From assembly GCF_003019035.1 (NCBI RefSeq), contig NZ_CP027447.1: a DNA stretch of 64,000 nt. One strand, given 5' to 3'. Below are positions 3,111 through 39,610 of the stretch, piece by piece (the stretch's first letter is position 1; each line of letters starts with the position of its first letter). Under the pieces are notes generated by a model. That model ran no database searches. It worked only from the letters and a program-made list of their open reading frames with translations, and had not been told where the DNA came from. The stretch comes from Escherichia coli. Lineage in GTDB: Bacteria; Pseudomonadota; Gammaproteobacteria; Enterobacterales; Enterobacteriaceae. The position numbers and the translations under genes are program-made.

Positions 3111-3830
3111 TTACAGGCCAATCGCCTCTTTTAAGCTTTTCAGATAACGGCGGCTGACCGGCACGGTTAAGCCATTACGCAAAATCAACTCGGCCTGACC
3201 GTTATCTTCCAGACGAATCTCCTGTAAATGCGCGAGGTTAACCAGATACTGACGATGGCAGCGCAGTAGTGGTGTACGACTCTCCAGGGTACGTAATGTC
3301 AGTTCGGTAAAGCCCTCTTTCCCTTCGTGACTGGTAACGTAGACACCGCTCATCCGACTGCTGACAAATGCCACATCTTTCATTTGCAGCAAATAAATCC
3401 GACTATGCCCCGTACAAGGGATAAATTTCAGCGCCTGTTGATTTTCCGGTAACAACGAAACATCCTGCTTGCTGCGCTCCAGACGCAATCGCGCCAGCGT
3501 TTTCTCCAGTCGCGCTTCATCAATTGGCTTCAGCAGATAATCAAAGGCATGTTCTTCAAAGGCTTTAATGGCGTATTCATCAAACGCGGTGAGAAAAACA
3601 ATATACGGACGATGTTCCGGGTCGAGCATCCCCACCATTTCCAGACCACTGATGCGCGGCATCTGGATATCGAGGAACAGCACATCCGGGCGCAGTTTAT
3701 GCACCGCGCCGATCCCTTCCACGGCGTTTGAACACTCACCAACGATTTCAATATCGCTCTGCTCCTGCAAAAATACGCGCAGGTTCTCCCGTGCTAACGG
3801 TTCATCATCGACAATTAAGACTTTAATCAT
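3111..3830 (-). CDS. btsR: LytTR-family response regulator BtsR (YehT), 239 aa
   Basis: Receiver domain [17 protein letters not shown]-terminal LytTR domain; ATGA overlap with upstream kinase gene. Confidence 0.9.
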
Positions 3831-5733: not shown

Positions 5734-6465
5734 ATGGCGCTTTACACAATTGGTGAAGTGGCGTTGCTTTGTGATATTAACCCTGTCACGTTACGCGCGT
5801 GGCAGAGGCGTTACGGATTGCTGAAACCGCAACGGACAGACGGCGGTCATCGGCTGTTCAACGATGCCGATATTGACCGGATCCGCGAGATCAAACGCTG
5901 GATCGACAACGGCGTGCAGGTCAGCAAAGTTAAAATGCTGCTCAGTAATGAAAATGTTGATGTGCAGAACGGCTGGCGCGATCAGCAAGAAACATTACTG
6001 ACTTACCTGCAAAGCGGCAATCTGCATAGCCTGCGAACGTGGATCAAAGAGCGCGGTCAGGATTACCCCGCCCAGACACTCACCACGCACCTGTTTATTC
6101 CACTGCGCCGACGGCTTCAGTGCCAACAACCGACTCTCCAGGCGCTGCTGGCGATCCTCGACGGCGTACTGATCAACTACATCGCCATCTGTCTGGCTTC
6201 GGCGCGCAAAAAACAGGGTAAAGATGCACTGGTGGTTGGCTGGAATATTCAGGATACCACTCGTCTGTGGCTGGAGGGCTGGATTGCCAGTCAACAAGGA
6301 TGGCGCATTGATGTCCTCGCCCACTCGCTCAATCAACTACGCCCTGAACTGTTCGAAGGTCGTACATTGCTGGTGTGGTGCGGTGATAATCGAACCTCCG
6401 CCCAACAGCAGCAACTCACCAGTTGGCAGGAACAAGGCCATGATATTTTCCCACTCGGCATTTAA
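5734..6465 (+). CDS. mlrA: MerR-family transcriptional regulator MlrA (YehV), 243 aa
   Basis: N-terminal MerR HTH (YTIGEVALLCDINPVTLRAWQRRYGL); length and synteny. Confidence 0.9.
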   Translation: MALYTIGEVALLCDINPVTLRAWQRRYGLLKPQRTDGGHRLFNDADIDRIREIKRWIDNGVQVSKVKMLLSNENVDVQNGWRDQQETLLTYLQSGNLHSLRTWIKERGQDYPAQTLTTHLFIPLRRRLQCQQPTLQALLAILDGVLINYIAICLASARKKQGKDALVVGWNIQDTTRLWLEGWIASQQGWRIDVLAHSLNQLRPELFEGRTLLVWCGDNRTSAQQQQLTSWQEQGHDIFPLGI

Positions 6466-6524
6466 TGATTCGTTAACAAATGCGCTTTACTGTACAATCC
6501 TTTCGTTAACATAAGGAGTGCATT

Positions 6525-6632
6525 ATGCGCATAGCTAAAATTGGGGTCATCGCCCTGTTCCTGTTTATGGCGTTAGGCGGAATTGGTGGCGTCATGCTCG
6601 CAGGTTATACCTTTATTTTGCGTGCTGGCTGA
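6525..6632 (+). CDS. yohO: Small membrane protein YohO, 35 aa ([35 protein letters not shown])
   Basis: Read directly from sequence; below the ORF-track size cutoff; AGGAG Shine-Dalgarno 6-8 nt upstream; single hydrophobic helix. Confidence 0.7.
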
Positions 6633-7344
6633 ACGCCTGCACCAGCCTTTCAAACAGGCGGTCTGCGATGATCGCCGCCAGTGCCACCAGTAATGCCCCC
6701 TGGATCACATACGCGGTATTAAATCCGCTAAGCCCGATGATGATCGGCGTACCCAGCGTGCTGGCCCCTACCGTTGAGGCGATCGTCGCCGTACCAATGT
6801 TGATAATCACCGAAGTTCGCACGCCCGCCAGAATCACCGGAGCCGCCAGCGGTAGCTCGACCTTACGCAGTCGCTGACCACGACTCATTCCCATACCTTT
6901 CGCAACTTCTGTCACGCTGGCATCAATCGCTCCCAGCCCGGCAAGTGTCGCCTGCAGGACGGGTAGCACACCGTAAAGGATCAAGGCGATAATCGCCGGT
7001 TGCAGGCCAAAGCCGATCACCGGAACGGCAATCGCCAGCACTGCAACGGGCGGAAAAGTCTGCCCAACGGCAGCAATAGTTTCCACCAGTGGGCGAAATT
7101 CCGCGCCCCACGGGCGAGTAACAATAATTCCTGCACCAGTGCCAATGATCACCGCAAACAAACTCGAAATTCCCACCAGCCAGAAATGAGCCAGTGCCAG
7201 AGCTGCAAAACTTTCTTGCTGATAAACGGGGCGTGGCAGTTGTGGGAACAAGGCAGCAAACAGCGGCTGGCTGTAAGGCAGCCAGAAAATCAGTGCCACA
7301 AACAAAGCAATGAGCCAGAACAGCGGATCGCGCAACATCTTCAT
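6613..7344 (-). CDS. yehW: ABC transporter permease YehW (osmoprotectant uptake system), 243 aa
   Basis: Polytopic permease ORF; first gene of 4-gene ABC operon; synteny. Confidence 0.9.
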
Positions 7345-7348
7345 ACGC

Positions 7349-8275
7349 TTACGCCTCCACCAGCAGATCCTGAAAATGCAGCGTGCCGCAAGGCTGGCCC
7401 TGCGTGTTCATCACCGGCAGCACCTCGCATCCCCGCGCGACAAACAGGGAGAGCGCATCGCGTAGCGTCATCTCTTCTGCCAGTGCCTCACCTTCTGCAC
7501 GTTCTTCGCGACGCACGTAATCCGCCACACTACGTAACGAAAGCAGGCGCACACCCAGTTCACTACGTCCAAAAAACTGGCGAACAAAATCATTCGCCGG
7601 ACGAGTCAGCATCGTCAGCGGATTGCCCTGCTGCACCACTTCACCGTGATCCATCAATACCAGATGTTCTGCCAGCCGTAGCGCCTCATCAATATCATGA
7701 GTGACCAGCACAATAGTGCGCCCCAGCAAACGGTGAATGCGCGTCATCTCTTGTTGCAACGCGCCGCGCGTTACCGGGTCCAGTGCGCCAAAAGGTTCAT
7801 CCATCAGTAAGACTTGCGGATCGGCAGCCAGTGCGCGCGCCACTCCCACACGTTGCTGCTGACCACCGGAAAGCTGATGCGGATAACGCTCACGTAAATT
7901 TGACTCCAGCCCCAGTAGCGCCATTAATTCGTCGATACGATCGTCAATCCTCGCCCGCGACCATTTTTGTAATTGCGGCACGGTAGCGATGTTTTGCGCC
8001 ACGCTCCAGTGGGGAAACAGGCCAATAGATTGAATGGCATAGCCCATCCGGCGGCGCAACTCCAGCACTGGCAGCGAGCGAATTTCTTCTCCGGCAAAGC
8101 GGATCACGCCACTGTCATGCTCCACCAGGCGGTTAATCATTTTCAGAGTGGTGGATTTACCGGAGCCTGATGTACCAATCAGCACTGAAAAACTCCCCTC
8201 CTGAAAATTGAGATTGAGATCGTTAACGGCTTTTTGTGCGCCGAACAGTTTGCTGACATGGCTAAATTCAATCAT
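7349..8275 (-). CDS. yehX: ABC transporter ATP-binding protein YehX, 308 aa
   Basis: Walker [13 protein letters not shown] signature LSGGQQQR, C-terminal CBS-like region. Confidence 0.9.
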
Positions 8276-9425
8276 TACGTTTCACCTTCAGCAGTGCGAT
8301 AAGCAAATCGAACAGCGCGTCGGTAAGCACCGCCAGAACAATTACCGGGATCACCCCCAGCAACACTAAATCAATGGCACTGCTTAGCAGCCCCTGGAAA
8401 ACCAGCGCACCAAAACCGCCTGCGCCGATTAACGCTGCAATCACCGCCATACCTACAGTTTGCACCATCACCACCCGCAGGCTGCGCAGAAATACCGGTA
8501 ACGCCAGCGGTAACTGAACATGCAGGAATCGCTGCGCCCCGCTCATCCCCATCGCTCTGGCGCTCTCCAGCACATCGCGCGGGATCTGGTTCAAGCCGAC
8601 TACCACGCCGCGCACCAGCGGCAGCAAGGCATAGAGCACCAGCGCAATCAGTGCGGGTGTCATTCCGGTTCCTGCTATGCCCAGCTTACCCAGCCACGGA
8701 AAGGCCGTCACCAGCGCGGCAAGCGGCGCAATCAACAGGCCAAAGAGCGCCACCGAAGGCACGGTCTGAATGACATTGAGTAGCGAAAAAATCGCCCCCT
8801 GCCGCGCGGTGGAAAAGTAGCACCAGACGCCCAACGGCACACCAATCACTAACGCAGGCAGCACCGCACCAAACAGCAACGTCAGATGTTGCGCCAGCGC
8901 GTCATCAAACACATCCTGACGGTTGGCGTATTCTTTCATTAGCGAGAGATCGTTAAGCACGCCGGAATACAGCAACCACAGCGGAATGATGGCAATCTGC
9001 ATATGCAACAACCAGCGCCACAGCGGATGCGTGGAGATTCGTCGGATGGCATCGCTACAGGCAAGCAATGCCAGCGCCGCAGCCAGCCAGAAACCACTGC
9101 CGAGGCTGGTACGCGCCAGCGCACTGCCATTTTGCGCCAGTTGTGTCGCCGCCTTTCCAGCTCCCCACACCAGCAATACGAAGACGAATTGCGCCAGAAT
9201 GAGTGCAAAAATGCTGCCTTTTTTAGCGGGAATAACACAGGCTGTCAGCCAGGCGCAACCAACGCCCACCAGCATCCAGATCGTTTGCGGCCACAGCTGC
9301 CAGAGATGGCGCCCCTCACCCGAAACTAAACGATTAGGCGCGTAACTGATAAACGGCAGCGCCGCTGCGATTGCCGTCAGCAACAGCAGCAGCGCCAGAA
9401 CAGGATTAATACGTAGATAAGTCAC
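8268..9425 (-). CDS. yehY: ABC transporter permease YehY, 385 aa
   Basis: Polytopic permease; 8-nt overlap with yehX; synteny. Confidence 0.9.
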
Positions 9426-9431
9426 GGGAAA

Positions 9432-10349
9432 TTACTTCGTCCACCCTTTTTGTTTCAGGTAGTCGGCAGCCACTTTTTTGGCATCCAGTCCTTCAACTGC
9501 AATGCTGGCATTCAGTTGCTGCAATGTTTTTGCATCGAGGCTGGCGAAGACTGGCTGTAGCCACTGTGCCATTTGCGGATACTCCTTCAGCACCGACTCA
9601 CGCACCACTGGTGCAGGCGCGTAGATAGGCTGCACGCCTTGCGGATCGCTTAAGGTTTGCAACCCCAGTGCCGCGACCGGACCGTCAGTGCCGTAAGCCA
9701 TTGCGGCATTAACGCCAGAAGTTTGCTGGGCAGCGGCCTTGATCGTTACCGCCGTGTCGCCACCAGCCAGTGACAGCAACTGATCCTGACCGAGCTTAAA
9801 GCCATAGGCTTTTTCAAAGGCGGGTAACGCATCGGCGCGTTCGATAAACTCTGCTGAGGCAGCCAGTTTGAAGGTGCCACCCTCTTTCAGATAACGACTC
9901 AGGTCAGCAAGCGAAGTGAGTTTGTTTTTCTCTGCCACATCCTGACGCACGGCGATGGTCCAGGTGTTATTTGCAGGCGCGGGCGTCAGCCAGATTAACT
10001 TGTTTTGCTCTGCATCGAGTTTTTTGACTTTCTCATAGCCTTGCTGCGCGTTTTTCCATGCCGTATCGTTTTCATCTTTAAAGAAAAACGCGCCATTGCC
10101 AGTATATTCCGGATAGATATCCAGCTCACCAGAAGTGATCGCCCCGCGCACTACGGGAGTCGTTCCCAATTGCACTTTATTTACCGTAGGAACGCCGTGA
10201 CTTTCCAGCACCTGCAAAATGATATTGCCGAGCAGCGCGCCTTCGGTATCGATTTTTGAACCGACTTTAACGGGGGAAGCCGCGTGCAGCGGCAGGCTCA
10301 CGGCTGCCAACAAAACCAGTGAACCTGCCCAGACCTTTGAGAGTGGCAT
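9432..10349 (-). CDS. osmF: Periplasmic substrate-binding protein OsmF (YehZ), 305 aa
   Basis: Signal peptide then glycine-betaine-binding-like fold; operon with yehYXW. Confidence 0.9.
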   Translation of the reverse strand: MPLSKVWAGSLVLLAAVSLPLHAASPVKVGSKIDTEGALLGNIILQVLESHGVPTVNKVQLGTTPVVRGAITSGELDIYPEYTGNGAFFFKDENDTAWKNAQQGYEKVKKLDAEQNKLIWLTPAPANNTWTIAVRQDVAEKNKLTSLADLSRYLKEGGTFKLAASAEFIERADALPAFEKAYGFKLGQDQLLSLAGGDTAVTIKAAAQQTSGVNAAMAYGTDGPVAALGLQTLSDPQGVQPIYAPAPVVRESVLKEYPQMAQWLQPVFASLDAKTLQQLNASIAVEGLDAKKVAADYLKQKGWTK

Positions 10350-19779: not shown

Positions 19780-19863
19780 ATGAAAATTATACTCTGGGCT
19801 GTATTGATTATTTTCCTGATTGGGCTACTGGTGGTGACTGGCGTATTTAAGATGATATTTTAA
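19780..19863 (+). CDS. yohP: Small membrane protein YohP, 27 aa (MKIILWAVLIIFLIGLLVVTGVFKMIF)
   Basis: Read directly from sequence; below the ORF-track cutoff; Shine-Dalgarno-like AAAGGAA upstream; single TM helix. Confidence 0.65.
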   Translation: MKIILWAVLIIFLIGLLVVTGVFKMIF

Positions 19864-35389: not shown

Positions 35390-35788
35390 TCACCAGCAAA
35401 GGGTATTTTCCAGCGCCGTACTAAAATCACGGTCATCTGCGTGCGGGGCTGGAGACTTCTGGTTTAAATCTGTCAGTTGCTGGCGCACCTGAAGTCGCCC
35501 TGCCCCTTCGCCGCTGGAAGAATTTTCGTTGAAATTACGCATTTCAGCTTCGAACAATATGGCATCGAGATTTTGCAATTTATTCAGCGCGCGCAGAAGA
35601 GAAATGAGGGTATCAAGATTTAAACTTCCTCCCTTTTCAATCCGCTTGACCGTTGCAATGCCCACCAATGCACGATCGGCTAACTGCTGTTGGGTCAATG
35701 ATAATGAGATCCGCGTTTCTTTAATGCGTGCACATAGAGATAAAATAATTTCGTTGTTATTCATCGTATTATATTTCATCTTACGCAT
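35390..35788 (-). CDS. XRE-family helix-turn-helix transcriptional regulator (accessory island gene); start codon uncertain among three in-frame ATGs (35788, 35779, 35764)
   Basis: HTH_XRE signature LTQQQLADRALVGIATVKRIEKG; stop abuts yeiG stop with no intergenic gap; overlaps the 3' end of the upstream dehydratase gene. Confidence 0.7.
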   Translation of the reverse strand: MRKMKYNTMNNNEIILSLCARIKETRISLSLTQQQLADRALVGIATVKRIEKGGSLNLDTLISLLRALNKLQNLDAILFEAEMRNFNENSSSGEGAGRLQVRQQLTDLNQKSPAPHADDRDFSTALENTLCW

Positions 35789-37133
35789 CCTTTTTTCTTG
35801 GCTGCAATTTGCTCAGACAGCCATGATAAGTTTCACGGTATTTAGCGCTCATATCCTTTCCGGTTTCATACATCGCGGAAATTATCTCATCCAGCGTAAT
35901 GCACGGCTCGCTTATGCGACTCAACGCCATCGTCGTTGCGTTGATAGCTTTCACAGCTGAAATAGCATTTCGTTCAATACAAGGAATTTGTACCTGCCCG
36001 CCAACTGGATCACAGGTCAAACCTAAATGGTGTTCCATTGCAATTTCTGCCGCGCTGAGTACCTGAGTCACTGACCCGCCCATAAGTTCTGCTAATCCTG
36101 CTGCCGCCATTGAACTGGCAACGCCTATTTCTCCCTGACATCCAACTTCAGACCCCAGAATAGAGGCATTTTTTTTGAACAGAATGGCGATGGCACCGGC
36201 GGTCAGAAAAAAGCGAGTAACGGAGTAAGTATCAAGTTCATGAATGAATTTATCATACCAACACAGTACGGCCGGGATAATACCGCTCGCGCCGTTGGTG
36301 GGTGCTGTCACGACGCGTCCACCAGCAGCATTTTCTTCGCTCACCGCAATGGCAAAAGTATTAACCCAATTGATCGCAGTCAGGAAGTCATTAGTAAACC
36401 CCTTTGCCTGCAACGATTTATATAAAGCACAGGCACGACGGTTAACCTGATACGGACCTGGAAGTAATCCTTCTGTATGCATCCCGCGATAGACCGCATC
36501 CTTCATTACTTCCCATTTTTTATTGAAATCGTCATGCAAAAAACCAGATGTCTGGCAGTGCAGTTCGTTTTTCATCATTAATGCCGCGACAGATAATCCG
36601 TTTTGCTGACAAAGTTTTAATAATTCGTTTGCGTTCTGGAATTCAAAAGGATGTGGAGTGACTGATGGAGGAATAATCGCCTCTCCTGCTTTTAGCACTT
36701 GACCGTCGCCGATAGAAAACCAGGTTTCTTCATAAAGTGTAAACCAGTCATCTCTGGCACGAAATGTCATCGCATAAGGGTGCCCCGGATGCGCCTGTGG
36801 ATTAGAAAGAATGGATACACTGACGTTGACACCAGGCATAACTTCCAGCGTCGCCTCAGTTTCTGCACGCCTGATGGCGGACATTTCCATGCGGATATCA
36901 ACACTGTCAGGTAAGTGGCCTTGCAAACCGAGATAAATCGCCACATCAACATTATGGCACTTGCGGCTTAATGACAGTGCACCATAAAGTTCGACATCAA
37001 TTTTCCGCAACAAAGGTAACATTTCTCGCTGTTTCAATTGTGAGACAAAATTATAAGCCGCACGCATTGGCCCGACAGTGCGGGAACTGGATGGACCTAT
37101 AACGATTTTGAATATATCTACGCAGCTTTCCAT
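35781..37133 (-). CDS. Fe-S L-serine dehydratase paralogue (SdaA/SdaB/TdcG family), about 450 aa (accessory island gene)
   Basis: Aligns by eye along its length with E. coli SdaA ([62 protein letters not shown]); start set to ATG at 37133 ([17 protein letters not shown]) rather than the upstream TTG. Confidence 0.85.
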
Positions 37134-37188
37134 TTTTGTAAATAATTCCTTCAACGTTGAAAACTCGTTATTCGTTATATCCTAGCAA

Positions 37189-37260
37189 AGATATCAAAAA
37201 TGGTACTTTTAGTATCTTATTATTTCAAGGTATCAAAAAAAGTACTTTTTTATCTTTTAT
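37189..37260. promoter_or_regulatory. Two direct-repeat copies of an approximately 27-bp palindrome-containing motif (TATCAAAAA..GTACTTTT..TATCTT) in the divergent island promoter; putative operator
   Basis: Copy 1 around 37191-37219, copy 2 around 37230-37258; copy 2 contains the perfect 16-bp palindrome AAAAAAGTACTTTTTT. Confidence 0.4.
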
Positions 37261-37343
37261 TTAACATTCACAACTGTGATTGTCAGATACATCAGCCTCT
37301 ACGAAATCTTATTATAATCATCGCAGATAAAAAGGAGCGGTAA

Positions 37344-38231
37344 ATGACGATTATTTATTTCTTGTCGCCAACAGGCATCGACATCACCCAAAAATGTCTG
37401 AAAGATTATCTGCAACATTTAAAGATTTCCCCCTCGGTGTTTTCGTTAACAACGAATTACAGTAGGCAAATAAATAGAGAGTATCTAAAGCTAGTATTAC
37501 CAAATGATGTTACCAACCCTGCTTTTTATGCTGGTTTACGTCACCGTGCTGATCATCATCATTTTGATTTTTTCCGCAAACCTACGGACTTACCGGCTGA
37601 GGGAATTATTGCCTTTGATATGGATTCCACCTTTGTTGAAGAGGAAGGTGTTGATGAAATAGCCCGTAGACTCGGCATCTCTGAAAAAATCACCGCACTG
37701 ACCCGTGAAGCGATGGAAGGGAAAATCGATTTTGATACCAGTTTTACCCGGCGAATTGCCATGCTTAAAGGAACGCATAAAGATATATTGCATCAAGTTT
37801 GTGAACAGATGACTCTTTCACCAGGTCTTGAAACTATTCTTCCCATACTAAAAGAAAAAGGATTCAAGACGGCAATTATATCTGGAGGTTTGGATATTTT
37901 TACTGAGCGATTGAAGGAAAAATATCAACTTGATTTTGCATTTTCTAACTCTGTGCGCATTAAGGAAGATCTGTTAACTGATACAATTACCTTACCTATT
38001 ATGAATGCAGAAAAGAAAAAGCAAACCCTGATAAATTTAGCGACAGAGTTAGCTATCTGCCGTGAAAACATCATTGCCTGCGGAGATGGCGCTAATGATA
38101 TTCCTATGCTTCTGCATGCCGGGAATGGCGTGGCATGGAAAGCAAAACCTAAAACCCGGGAAAAAGTTGCTAACCAGATTAATTTTAATGGTTTCGAGTC
38201 GCTTCTCTTTTTTATAGAAGAAAAATTATAG
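37344..38231 (+). CDS. HAD-superfamily phosphoserine-phosphatase-like protein (SerB paralogue), 295 aa (accessory island gene)
   Basis: HAD motifs DMDSTF (I), SGG (II), GDGANDIPML (III); collinear with SerB catalytic domain; AAGGAG Shine-Dalgarno 8 nt upstream of ATG. Confidence 0.8.
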   Translation: MTIIYFLSPTGIDITQKCLKDYLQHLKISPSVFSLTTNYSRQINREYLKLVLPNDVTNPAFYAGLRHRADHHHFDFFRKPTDLPAEGIIAFDMDSTFVEEEGVDEIARRLGISEKITALTREAMEGKIDFDTSFTRRIAMLKGTHKDILHQVCEQMTLSPGLETILPILKEKGFKTAIISGGLDIFTERLKEKYQLDFAFSNSVRIKEDLLTDTITLPIMNAEKKKQTLINLATELAICRENIIACGDGANDIPMLLHAGNGVAWKAKPKTREKVANQINFNGFESLLFFIEEKL

Positions 38232-38263
38232 CGCCATAAAGTTTACAGAAAAGGAAACTCACG

Positions 38264-39586
38264 ATGAGCTTGAAAAAATTTATTTTCAGCCAGGCCGACC
38301 AACCGGTGGTCAAACGGCAAGAAGAAGTTGATCATACTTATAAAAAATTTCGCATTGAAATCATCACCTCTGTATTTATCTCTTATGCCGTATTTTATTT
38401 AACCCGCAAGAATTTCTCTGCGGCCATGCCGGCGATGTTAACGGATACGTCATTAACTGCACAAGATTTCGCTATCATGTCGTCGGTCTTTTACATTCTT
38501 TATGGCTCCATGAAGTTTGTAGGTGGCATGTTAGTTGATAAAATTAATCCACGCGCGATGACCGGCCCCGTACTTATTGGCGTCGGTATTGTTAATATTC
38601 TTTTCGGTTTTTCAGACAGCGTTGCTGCGTTCTATATCCTGTACAGCCTTAATGCTATTCTTCAGGGTACCAGTTTTCCGCCGATGGCAAAAATTATGGC
38701 CTCGTGGTTCTCTAAAAATGAACGCGGGCGCTGGTGGGCAGTTGTTGAAGCGGCGCATAATATTGGCGGTAGTCTTGCGCCTCTCCTGACAAGCTTTGCT
38801 ATTGCTTTTAGTGGCAGCTGGAAGATGGGCTTTTATGTTCCGGGTGTAATCTCACTGATTATGGGGATTGTTGCCTTGTTTACGATAAAAGATCGTCCCG
38901 GCACGCTCGGTTTGCCTAACGTCGGTAAGTGGCGCAACGACCCGACAGAACTTGCACAAGTTAAAGCAAGTCCGGTTGATCTCAGTTTTTGGCAAATATT
39001 CGTTAAATATATTCTTACCAACCCATTAGTTTGGCTCATTATCCTCGGGGATATGTCGGTCTATATTGCACGCACCATCCTCAATGACTGGCCACAAATT
39101 TATTATTCTCAGGTTCATAACTGGAGCCTGATTAAAGCGAACTCCATTATATCCTGGTTTGAAGCAGGTGGACTTGCTGGGGGATTACTGGCGGGATACT
39201 TGTCCGATTTCATGTTTAAAAGTAACCGCTGGATGACCGGATTAATCTTTGCCATCGCTTTATGTATTTGCATCGTTCTCGTACCGCTGGTGCAGGACGT
39301 CTCCTATACATTAACGGCTATTCTGTTTACAATCATGGGGTTTGCATTGTATGGACCGCATATGTTATTCGCTGTCGGGTGTCTTGATGTTACGCATAAA
39401 GATGCGGCAGGTTCCATTACTGGATTCAGGGGCTTGTTTAGTTATTTAGGCGCGGCAATGGCAGGGCTTCCAGTTATTATGGTGAAAAACAGTTGGGAAT
39501 GGTCAGGAGTGTATATTTACGCCGTCATTACCATTTTGCTGACAACATTTTCACTGGCCTTACTGGCAAAATTTCATCGGTTATAA
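38264..39586 (+). CDS. MFS transporter of the organophosphate:phosphate antiporter (OPA) family, GlpT/UhpT/PgtP-like, 440 aa (accessory island gene)
   Basis: 12-TM MFS; OPA-family signatures (YLTRKNFSAAMP, WFSKNERGRWW, LYGPHMLFAVG, AAGSITGFRGLFSYLGA) resembling GlpT; Shine-Dalgarno AAGGA upstream. Confidence 0.8.
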   Translation: MSLKKFIFSQADQPVVKRQEEVDHTYKKFRIEIITSVFISYAVFYLTRKNFSAAMPAMLTDTSLTAQDFAIMSSVFYILYGSMKFVGGMLVDKINPRAMTGPVLIGVGIVNILFGFSDSVAAFYILYSLNAILQGTSFPPMAKIMASWFSKNERGRWWAVVEAAHNIGGSLAPLLTSFAIAFSGSWKMGFYVPGVISLIMGIVALFTIKDRPGTLGLPNVGKWRNDPTELAQVKASPVDLSFWQIFVKYILTNPLVWLIILGDMSVYIARTILNDWPQIYYSQVHNWSLIKANSIISWFEAGGLAGGLLAGYLSDFMFKSNRWMTGLIFAIALCICIVLVPLVQDVSYTLTAILFTIMGFALYGPHMLFAVGCLDVTHKDAAGSITGFRGLFSYLGAAMAGLPVIMVKNSWEWSGVYIYAVITILLTTFSLALLAKFHRL

Positions 39587-39610
39587 ATCCAGAAACGAAT
39601 TTCTGGCATT

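Follow-up and report, generated by a model that had tools for sequence, protein, structure and literature searches.

Within the window, the whole stretch of 64,000 nucleotides of Escherichia coli DNA that was analysed, a small-protein gene and a transporter gene converge and share the ends of their coding sequences. The gene yohO (6525..6632, + strand) runs from an ATG start to a TGA stop and encodes a protein of 35 amino acids with a GGIGG motif and one predicted transmembrane helix, as supported by the open reading frame (ORF) listing and RefSeq. The opposing gene yehW (6613..7344, − strand; ORF listing, Pfam and RefSeq) encodes an ABC transporter permease of 243 amino acids and is the last gene of osmF-yehY-yehX-yehW. 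Their antisense coding overlap (6613..6632, both strands) comprises 20 nt including both stop codons. The yehW stop, TAA on the − strand at 6613-6615, is the reverse complement of parts of the YohO Phe-Ile codons, and the yohO stop on the + strand at 6630-6632 lies within YehW codons 238/239. The ORF listing and RefSeq further place mlrA (5734..6465, + strand) upstream of yohO on the same strand, and yehX (7349-8275), yehY (8268-9425) and osmF (9432-10349) on the − strand as the other genes of the transporter operon. The assignment of YehW as an ABC transporter permease is based on its match to Pfam BPD_transp_1 (PF00528, 1.3e-27) and on its operon context of an ATPase, a second permease and an OpuAC-type binding protein. 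Junctions inside the transporter operon are also tight, with a gap of 4 nt between yehX and yehW (7341-7349) and an overlap of 8 nt between yehY and yehX (8268-8275).

Positions 6300-7400 of the window are 100% identical to E. coli SCU-301 (NZ_CP051751.1), for which RefSeq annotates the gene order mlrA and yohO in one orientation, followed by yehW, yehX, yehY and osmF in the other, with the same overlap; RefSeq locus positions were converted to the window by adding 3299. The locus was found in 5423 of 5426 complete E. coli genomes, and in K-12 MG1655 RefSeq lists yohO at 2215657-2215764 and yehW at 2215745-2216476, again sharing 20 nt. The preliminary description, made from the sequence of the window, had a 35-codon yohO ending 20 nt inside the convergent yehW, and this layout is borne out by the ORF listing and by RefSeq for both SCU-301 and K-12. 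The overlap is already known as an annotated and published feature of E. coli, and public annotation or papers already contain the genes, the overlap, the translation of yohO, its 3′ end and the overlap of the transcripts. What is newly added here is modest and consists of the comparative points, namely the conservation of the overlap, its independence of the upstream neighbour and the codon phase of its variation. Elsewhere in the window, four genes lie between cirA and yeiG (~35391-39587) according to the annotation of the identical reference genome, encoding an MFS transporter, a serB-like phosphoserine phosphatase, an L-serine ammonia-lyase and an HTH protein. K-12 is not known to carry these four genes at the same position, and the four-gene stretch may be a strain-variable islet.

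The protein encoded by yohO matches the NCBIfam equivalog model NF010225 ('protein YohO') over residues 1-35 of 35 with 80.1 bits against a cut-off of 57, and PF27791 (YohO / UPF0387 small membrane protein) is recorded for its homologues among precomputed matches. The identical K-12 protein was seen by top-down mass spectrometry (PMC12529367), and Ribo-seq coverage of K-12 yohO is given in the literature by a source citing Hemm 2008. An absence of yohO translation, which the preliminary description had named as an observation that would speak against its view, is excluded by these two lines of evidence, and yohO encodes a genuine, translated membrane protein of 35 amino acids. The same description had pointed to a second small membrane protein gene, yohP, and this ORF is indeed present (19780..19863, + strand; sequence, profile matches and RefSeq). 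Its product of 27 amino acids passes both YohP models (NCBIfam NF011345, 67.3 bits against a cut-off of 58; Pfam PF25659, 50.6 bits against a cut-off of 27), and the gene stands alone with no overlap. Both yohO and yohP are hidden by short-ORF filters.

We compared the locus among relatives collected by a YehW scan with one genome per species, in which 80 loci were examined of the 432 relatives detected. An intact yohO homologue overlaps the yehW 3′ end by 14-26 nt in 78 of these 80 species loci. The overlap measures 20 nt at 33 loci (Escherichia, Citrobacter, Salmonella, Cedecea, Buttiauxella and others), 26 nt at 42 loci (Enterobacter, Klebsiella, Kosakonia, Leclercia and others), 17 nt at two loci and 14 nt at one, from a Pantoea. 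A 6-nt indel within the shared stretch separates the 20-nt form from the 26-nt form; it gives both proteins two more residues and leaves the overlap in place. Of the two remaining loci, one has a disrupted 5′ part of yohO and the other has no yohO. In the former, from Citrobacter amalonaticus AUH_CA_2023_1 (locus L007, ~3213-3320), the 5′ part is out of frame and the 3′ part with the overlap is intact, so that either a genuine pseudogene or an error of the long-read assembly could account for it. The latter, from Enterobacterales bacterium CwR94 (L076), is the sole fetched locus without a yohO homologue, and its YehW ends slightly earlier (…LQRLQTA), which would fit a longer YehW tail being tied to the presence of yohO.

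The upstream neighbourhood is less uniform. At 75 of the 80 loci, the 2.5-kb flank next to yohO contains mlrA, mostly directly upstream of yohO. Eight further loci reached via divergent YohO proteins also show the overlap with a yehW-type gene. Two of the divergent proteins were traced to contigs in which the upstream neighbour is either metG with small regulators or a TonB-dependent receptor; in both, yohO overlaps a yehW-type permease gene by 20 nt, followed by an ATPase, a second permease and an OpuAC-type binding protein. The gene is hence found beside yehW-type permeases in three different upstream neighbourhoods. A phmmer search of 1.84 billion representatives returned only 17 YohO clusters, mostly frameshifted or chimeric variants of one narrow family. 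Judged by this distribution, the overlap is old, extending across Enterobacteriaceae and staying with the transporter operon whatever the upstream gene, and it is not a chance feature of the source strain.

Since the shared nucleotides are read in two frames, their variation can be assigned to codon positions of either gene. Outside the overlap both genes show the same codon-phase pattern, with mean column entropies at positions 1, 2 and 3 of ~0.45, 0.1-0.2 and 1.1 in yohO and of 0.44, 0.21-0.22 and 1.09-1.20 in yehW. Inside the overlap, column entropy averages 0.73-0.80 at position 3 of yohO, equivalent to position 2 of yehW, and 0.08-0.46 at the other two yohO positions, with 0.09-0.46 at yohO position 2, which is yehW position 3. 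The pattern of yohO is retained within the overlap and that of yehW is inverted. Immediately outside the overlap, YehW codons are variable at every one of their positions (entropy 0.9-1.95), and within each class the last 9 residues of YohO occur in 3-8 variants against 28-35 for the last 12 residues of YehW. Without exception, T-T-Y-A in the conserved Phe-Ile codons of YohO supplies the yehW stop as its reverse complement (TTY-A gives TRA). By this pattern, YohO is the constrained partner, the DNA of the overlap evolves as yohO coding sequence, and the ~12 C-terminal residues of YehW are poorly constrained.

These data also bear on the reading that the overlap is an annotation artefact, in which yohO is no real gene or yehW truly ends upstream of yohO. 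Spurious calls are common among short ORFs, and conservation of the YehW tail is poor, both of which would agree with such an artefact. However, YohO is kept across genera with clear third-position periodicity, a strong and conserved Shine-Dalgarno sequence precedes its gene, the protein passes a curated equivalog model and was detected by mass spectrometry and Ribo-seq, and the frame of yehW stays open as far as 6613 in the window and, in every species, as far as the homologous stop. An artefact is thus scarcely credible and is essentially excluded.

The leader of yohO carries elements of its own. A promoter-like −10 hexamer is inferred at 6493..6498 (+ strand), reading TACAAT in the window and TATAAT or TATACT in other genera, and it is kept in a 27-species alignment as well as in lineages with a different upstream gene. 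A strict sigma-70 scan made no call at this hexamer because the −35 element is weak. The Shine-Dalgarno sequence TAAGGAG lies at 6512..6518 (+ strand), with a conserved GTTAACA before it. Since the leader (TATAAT/TACAAT, GTTAACA and TAAGGAG 5-8 nt before the ATG) is kept in all upstream contexts, yohO seems to form a transcription unit of its own, which accompanies the transporter operon and not mlrA. A consensus scan found no terminator-like site in the gap between mlrA and yohO. Just upstream of the −10 hexamer, a near-palindrome TTAATGATTCGTTAAC (consensus TTAATGgTTCATTAAC) at 6462-6477 spans the mlrA stop; it is kept across genera, and partly so (TTAATGTTTTATTAAC) where the upstream gene encodes a TonB-dependent receptor and not mlrA, and it may be a candidate regulator site for yohO. 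A MlrA-box in the −10 region of yohO was considered on the basis of TGTACAAT, which we took to resemble a MlrA half-site, and was dropped, as the second half-site is absent and the sequence corresponds to TATAAT in other genera.

We then turned to the ends of the transcripts. Term-seq data of Adams et al. 2021 (PMC7815308) place a primary yohO 3′ end at K-12 position 2215813 (+), which is also classed as antisense to yehW and appears three times in a file that spans three growth conditions. A bicyclomycin-sensitive Rho region is listed at K-12 2215995 (+) with a Rho score of 5.64 and p 9.4e-16 (PMC7815308, Supplementary file 2). Since K-12 and the window are collinear without indels and the 61-nt context given in the table matches, both positions can be transferred. 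On window coordinates, the yohO mRNA ends at 6681, having run 49 nt beyond its stop and 69 nt into yehW, giving a 3′ UTR (6633..6681, + strand) that is antisense to yehW codons. The Rho-dependent termination region peaks at ~6863 (+ strand), likewise antisense to yehW and ~180 nt downstream of the mapped 3′ end; this position is approximate because the published method scores 800-nt windows. No yehW transcript 3′ end is listed in the Term-seq tables of the same study, and the SMRT-Cappable-seq supplements do not mention yohO or yehW. A genomic SELEX study of minor sigma factors records a holoenzyme peak of type D (within genes) at the old K-12 coordinate 2214150, between yohO and yehX (PMC5493296); it stems from the section on promoters of extracytoplasmic-stress sigma factors, and its position in the window, ~6796 inside yehW, is an estimate.

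It had been proposed from the sequence that transcription of either gene must run into the other. This holds by logic, because each mRNA must hold its own stop codon, and for yohO it is also shown by the K-12 3′ end at window position 6681 (PMC7815308). Transcript overlap of the pair is further documented by RNA-seq, in which it counts as a convergent excludon in 50% or more of 58 samples (PMC12288877). The interpretation that accompanied the preliminary description is in this way supported in part, namely for the overlap of the transcripts.

An intrinsic or bidirectional terminator shared by the convergent genes was rejected on the consensus scan and on folds of both strands. The scan for consensus terminators gave a single weak site, which lies inside the yohO coding sequence and is about what shuffled sequences lead one to expect. 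Neither the − strand RNA downstream of the yehW stop (z = −0.71) nor the yohO 3′ UTR (z = −0.46) folds better than shuffles, and a G+C-rich hairpin with an A tract and a U tract is absent between or within the 3′ ends in folds of both strands. The + strand of 6600-6800 does fold with z = −2.63, but the pairing responsible is long-range, lies inside the yehW coding sequence and has no relation to the mapped 3′ end. Rfam gave no match at E <= 1 across 6200-7000. A 7-bp hairpin (GGCGGUC-UGCGAU-GAUCGCC, 6657..6676, + strand) ends 5 nt before the mapped yohO 3′ end and has no U tract. Its cells are paired in 78.6% of cases over 42 species with some covariation, a value to be read with its location inside conserved yehW coding sequence, where slid controls are partly high as well. 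Possibly, this hairpin serves as the stop point for trimming by a 3′ exonuclease.

If the tight packing leaves no room for an intrinsic terminator in either gene, each transcript would necessarily enter the other gene, and the 3′ ends would then have to be made in another way. We infer that they may be produced by Rho acting on untranslated antisense RNA followed by exonuclease trimming. Going by the published Rho score, read-through of yohO deeper into yehW is cut off by Rho in K-12.

Taking the comparative and the transcript data together, we favor, at a probability of about 70%, that the overlap is a passive by-product of tight gene packing and was not selected for regulation. According to this explanation, a dispensable cytoplasmic tail of YehW would read on to the first in-frame stop, and this stop would be hard-wired by the reverse complement of the YohO Phe-Ile codons. 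The overlap would persist because its removal brings no advantage and because the C-terminus of YohO cannot change. An RNA duplex and polymerase collision would have to occur whenever both promoters fire, and we expect their effect on the output of YehW or YohO to be small. The evolutionary pattern seen in the alignments is what a passive overlap predicts, and selection for regulation is not needed to explain it. A premature stop in the loose YehW tail would easily remove the overlap and was seen in none of the 78 species; the persistence of the overlap throughout the family could therefore also reflect selection for it.

Retention for a reason other than packing, either because the transcript or the promoter of yohO tunes how much is made from the last permease gene of the betaine transporter OsmF-YehYXW or because YohO is a dedicated small subunit or regulator of this transporter, is in our estimate unlikely. 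If either form were true, the overlap would lock yohO and the transporter gene into one heritable module.

The regulatory form would make the pair a functional convergent excludon, in which yohO and the transporter were selected to antagonize each other, with transcription running from the yohO promoter into yehW and from the osmF operon through yohO, via collision of RNA polymerases and cleavage of the duplex by RNase III. ExcludonFinder lists yohO-yehW among the 165 convergent excludons of MG1655, where the term covers pairs that recur in 50% or more of 58 RNA-seq samples (PMC12288877). The pair also shows the transcript overlap that characterizes this class, with opposite strands, a coding overlap of 20 nt and a yohO 3′ end 69 nt inside yehW. 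This listing is uninformative with regard to regulation, because any expressed pair with overlapping coding sequences enters the class automatically. The presence of the pair in the E. coli excludome and the transcript overlap in most K-12 RNA-seq samples (PMC12288877) agree with the regulatory reading. The reach of the yohO mRNA 69 nt into yehW, with some transcripts extending to the Rho region ~250 nt in, would likewise suit an antisense function. Yet only the extreme 3′ end (the last 69 to ~250 nt) of a four-gene operon of ~3.7 kb is covered, and Rho limits the antisense transcription. The conservation of the overlap in all 78 species with an intact yohO, even through an indel, and the retention by yohO of its own conserved promoter-like and Shine-Dalgarno elements can be read in favor of selection, but the constraint on the YohO protein fully explains the pattern of variation in the overlap. 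The preliminary description had raised antisense interference between the small membrane protein and the transporter operon. The literature search yielded no experiment on the yohO-yehW pair, no report of expression of one gene with the other silenced and none of antisense interference between yohO and the transporter. Taken together, we regard a selected antagonism as quite unlikely.

The arrangement also matters in practice, since any deletion or recoding of yohO or yehW touches the partner gene. As the overlap is conserved in Enterobacteriaceae, the constraint on YohO is dominant and the YehW stop arises from the Phe-Ile codons, the comparative result may serve as a tidy example of antisense coding overlaps that persist without regulatory selection.

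A further possibility concerns the protein and not the overlap itself. YohO might be functionally tied to OsmF-YehYXW, for instance by serving as a small membrane subunit with an accessory or regulatory role, with the overlap reflecting or enforcing their co-inheritance; such a tie would be compatible with a passive as well as with an excludon account of the overlap. It would agree with the occurrence of yohO only beside yehW-type permease genes, in 78 of 80 species and at the eight loci with other upstream neighbours, and with the narrowness of its family (17 clusters in 1.84 billion representatives, most of them artefactual variants). However, strict linkage is expected even without a functional tie, because any rearrangement that parted two genes with 20 nt in common would damage both. 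Moreover, convergent genes are not co-transcribed, and a literature search for YohO interactions or phenotypes gave only one overexpression screen and an anaerobic down-regulation in Shigella. We consider this tie very doubtful, and the strict linkage of yohO to the transporter nevertheless provides a cheap hypothesis for the function of YohO.

When compared to the characterized locus of K-12, the window carries the same genes in the same order (yohO, b4542; yehW, b2128) with the same 20-nt overlap and an identical YohO protein. From mlrA to yehW the two sequences differ by 33 substitutions over 1611 nt and by zero indels. One difference falls on the overlap: the yohO stop is TGA in the window and TAA in K-12, and this switch together with one adjacent change is responsible for residue 238 of YehW being Phe in the window and Leu in K-12.

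On the transcript level, the yohO 3′ end resembles mRNA 3′ ends that are terminated by Rho and subsequently trimmed (PMC7815308, PMC6061677) in that it has no U tract and lies a few nt past a modest hairpin. As for such ends, a bicyclomycin-sensitive region lies downstream, but it is ~180 nt away and placed at the resolution of 800-nt windows. The yohO 3′ end would fit Rho termination followed by trimming. Typical excludons (PMC12288877) are opposite-strand neighbours with overlapping transcripts, and yohO-yehW is alike in this respect. In contrast to typical excludons, which overlap via long UTRs and show reciprocal expression, it is the coding sequences of yohO and yehW that overlap, and the antisense extension is short (69 nt).

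Several small membrane proteins of E. coli, among them KdpF, AcrZ, MgtS and SgrT, bind transporters, which would lend some plausibility to a role of YohO at the adjacent transporter. Like KdpF, AcrZ and MgtS, YohO is a single-helix protein of less than 50 amino acids that is encoded beside transporter genes, a likeness that amounts to resemblance only, and it differs from them in that yohO is convergent to the operon and does not lie inside it.
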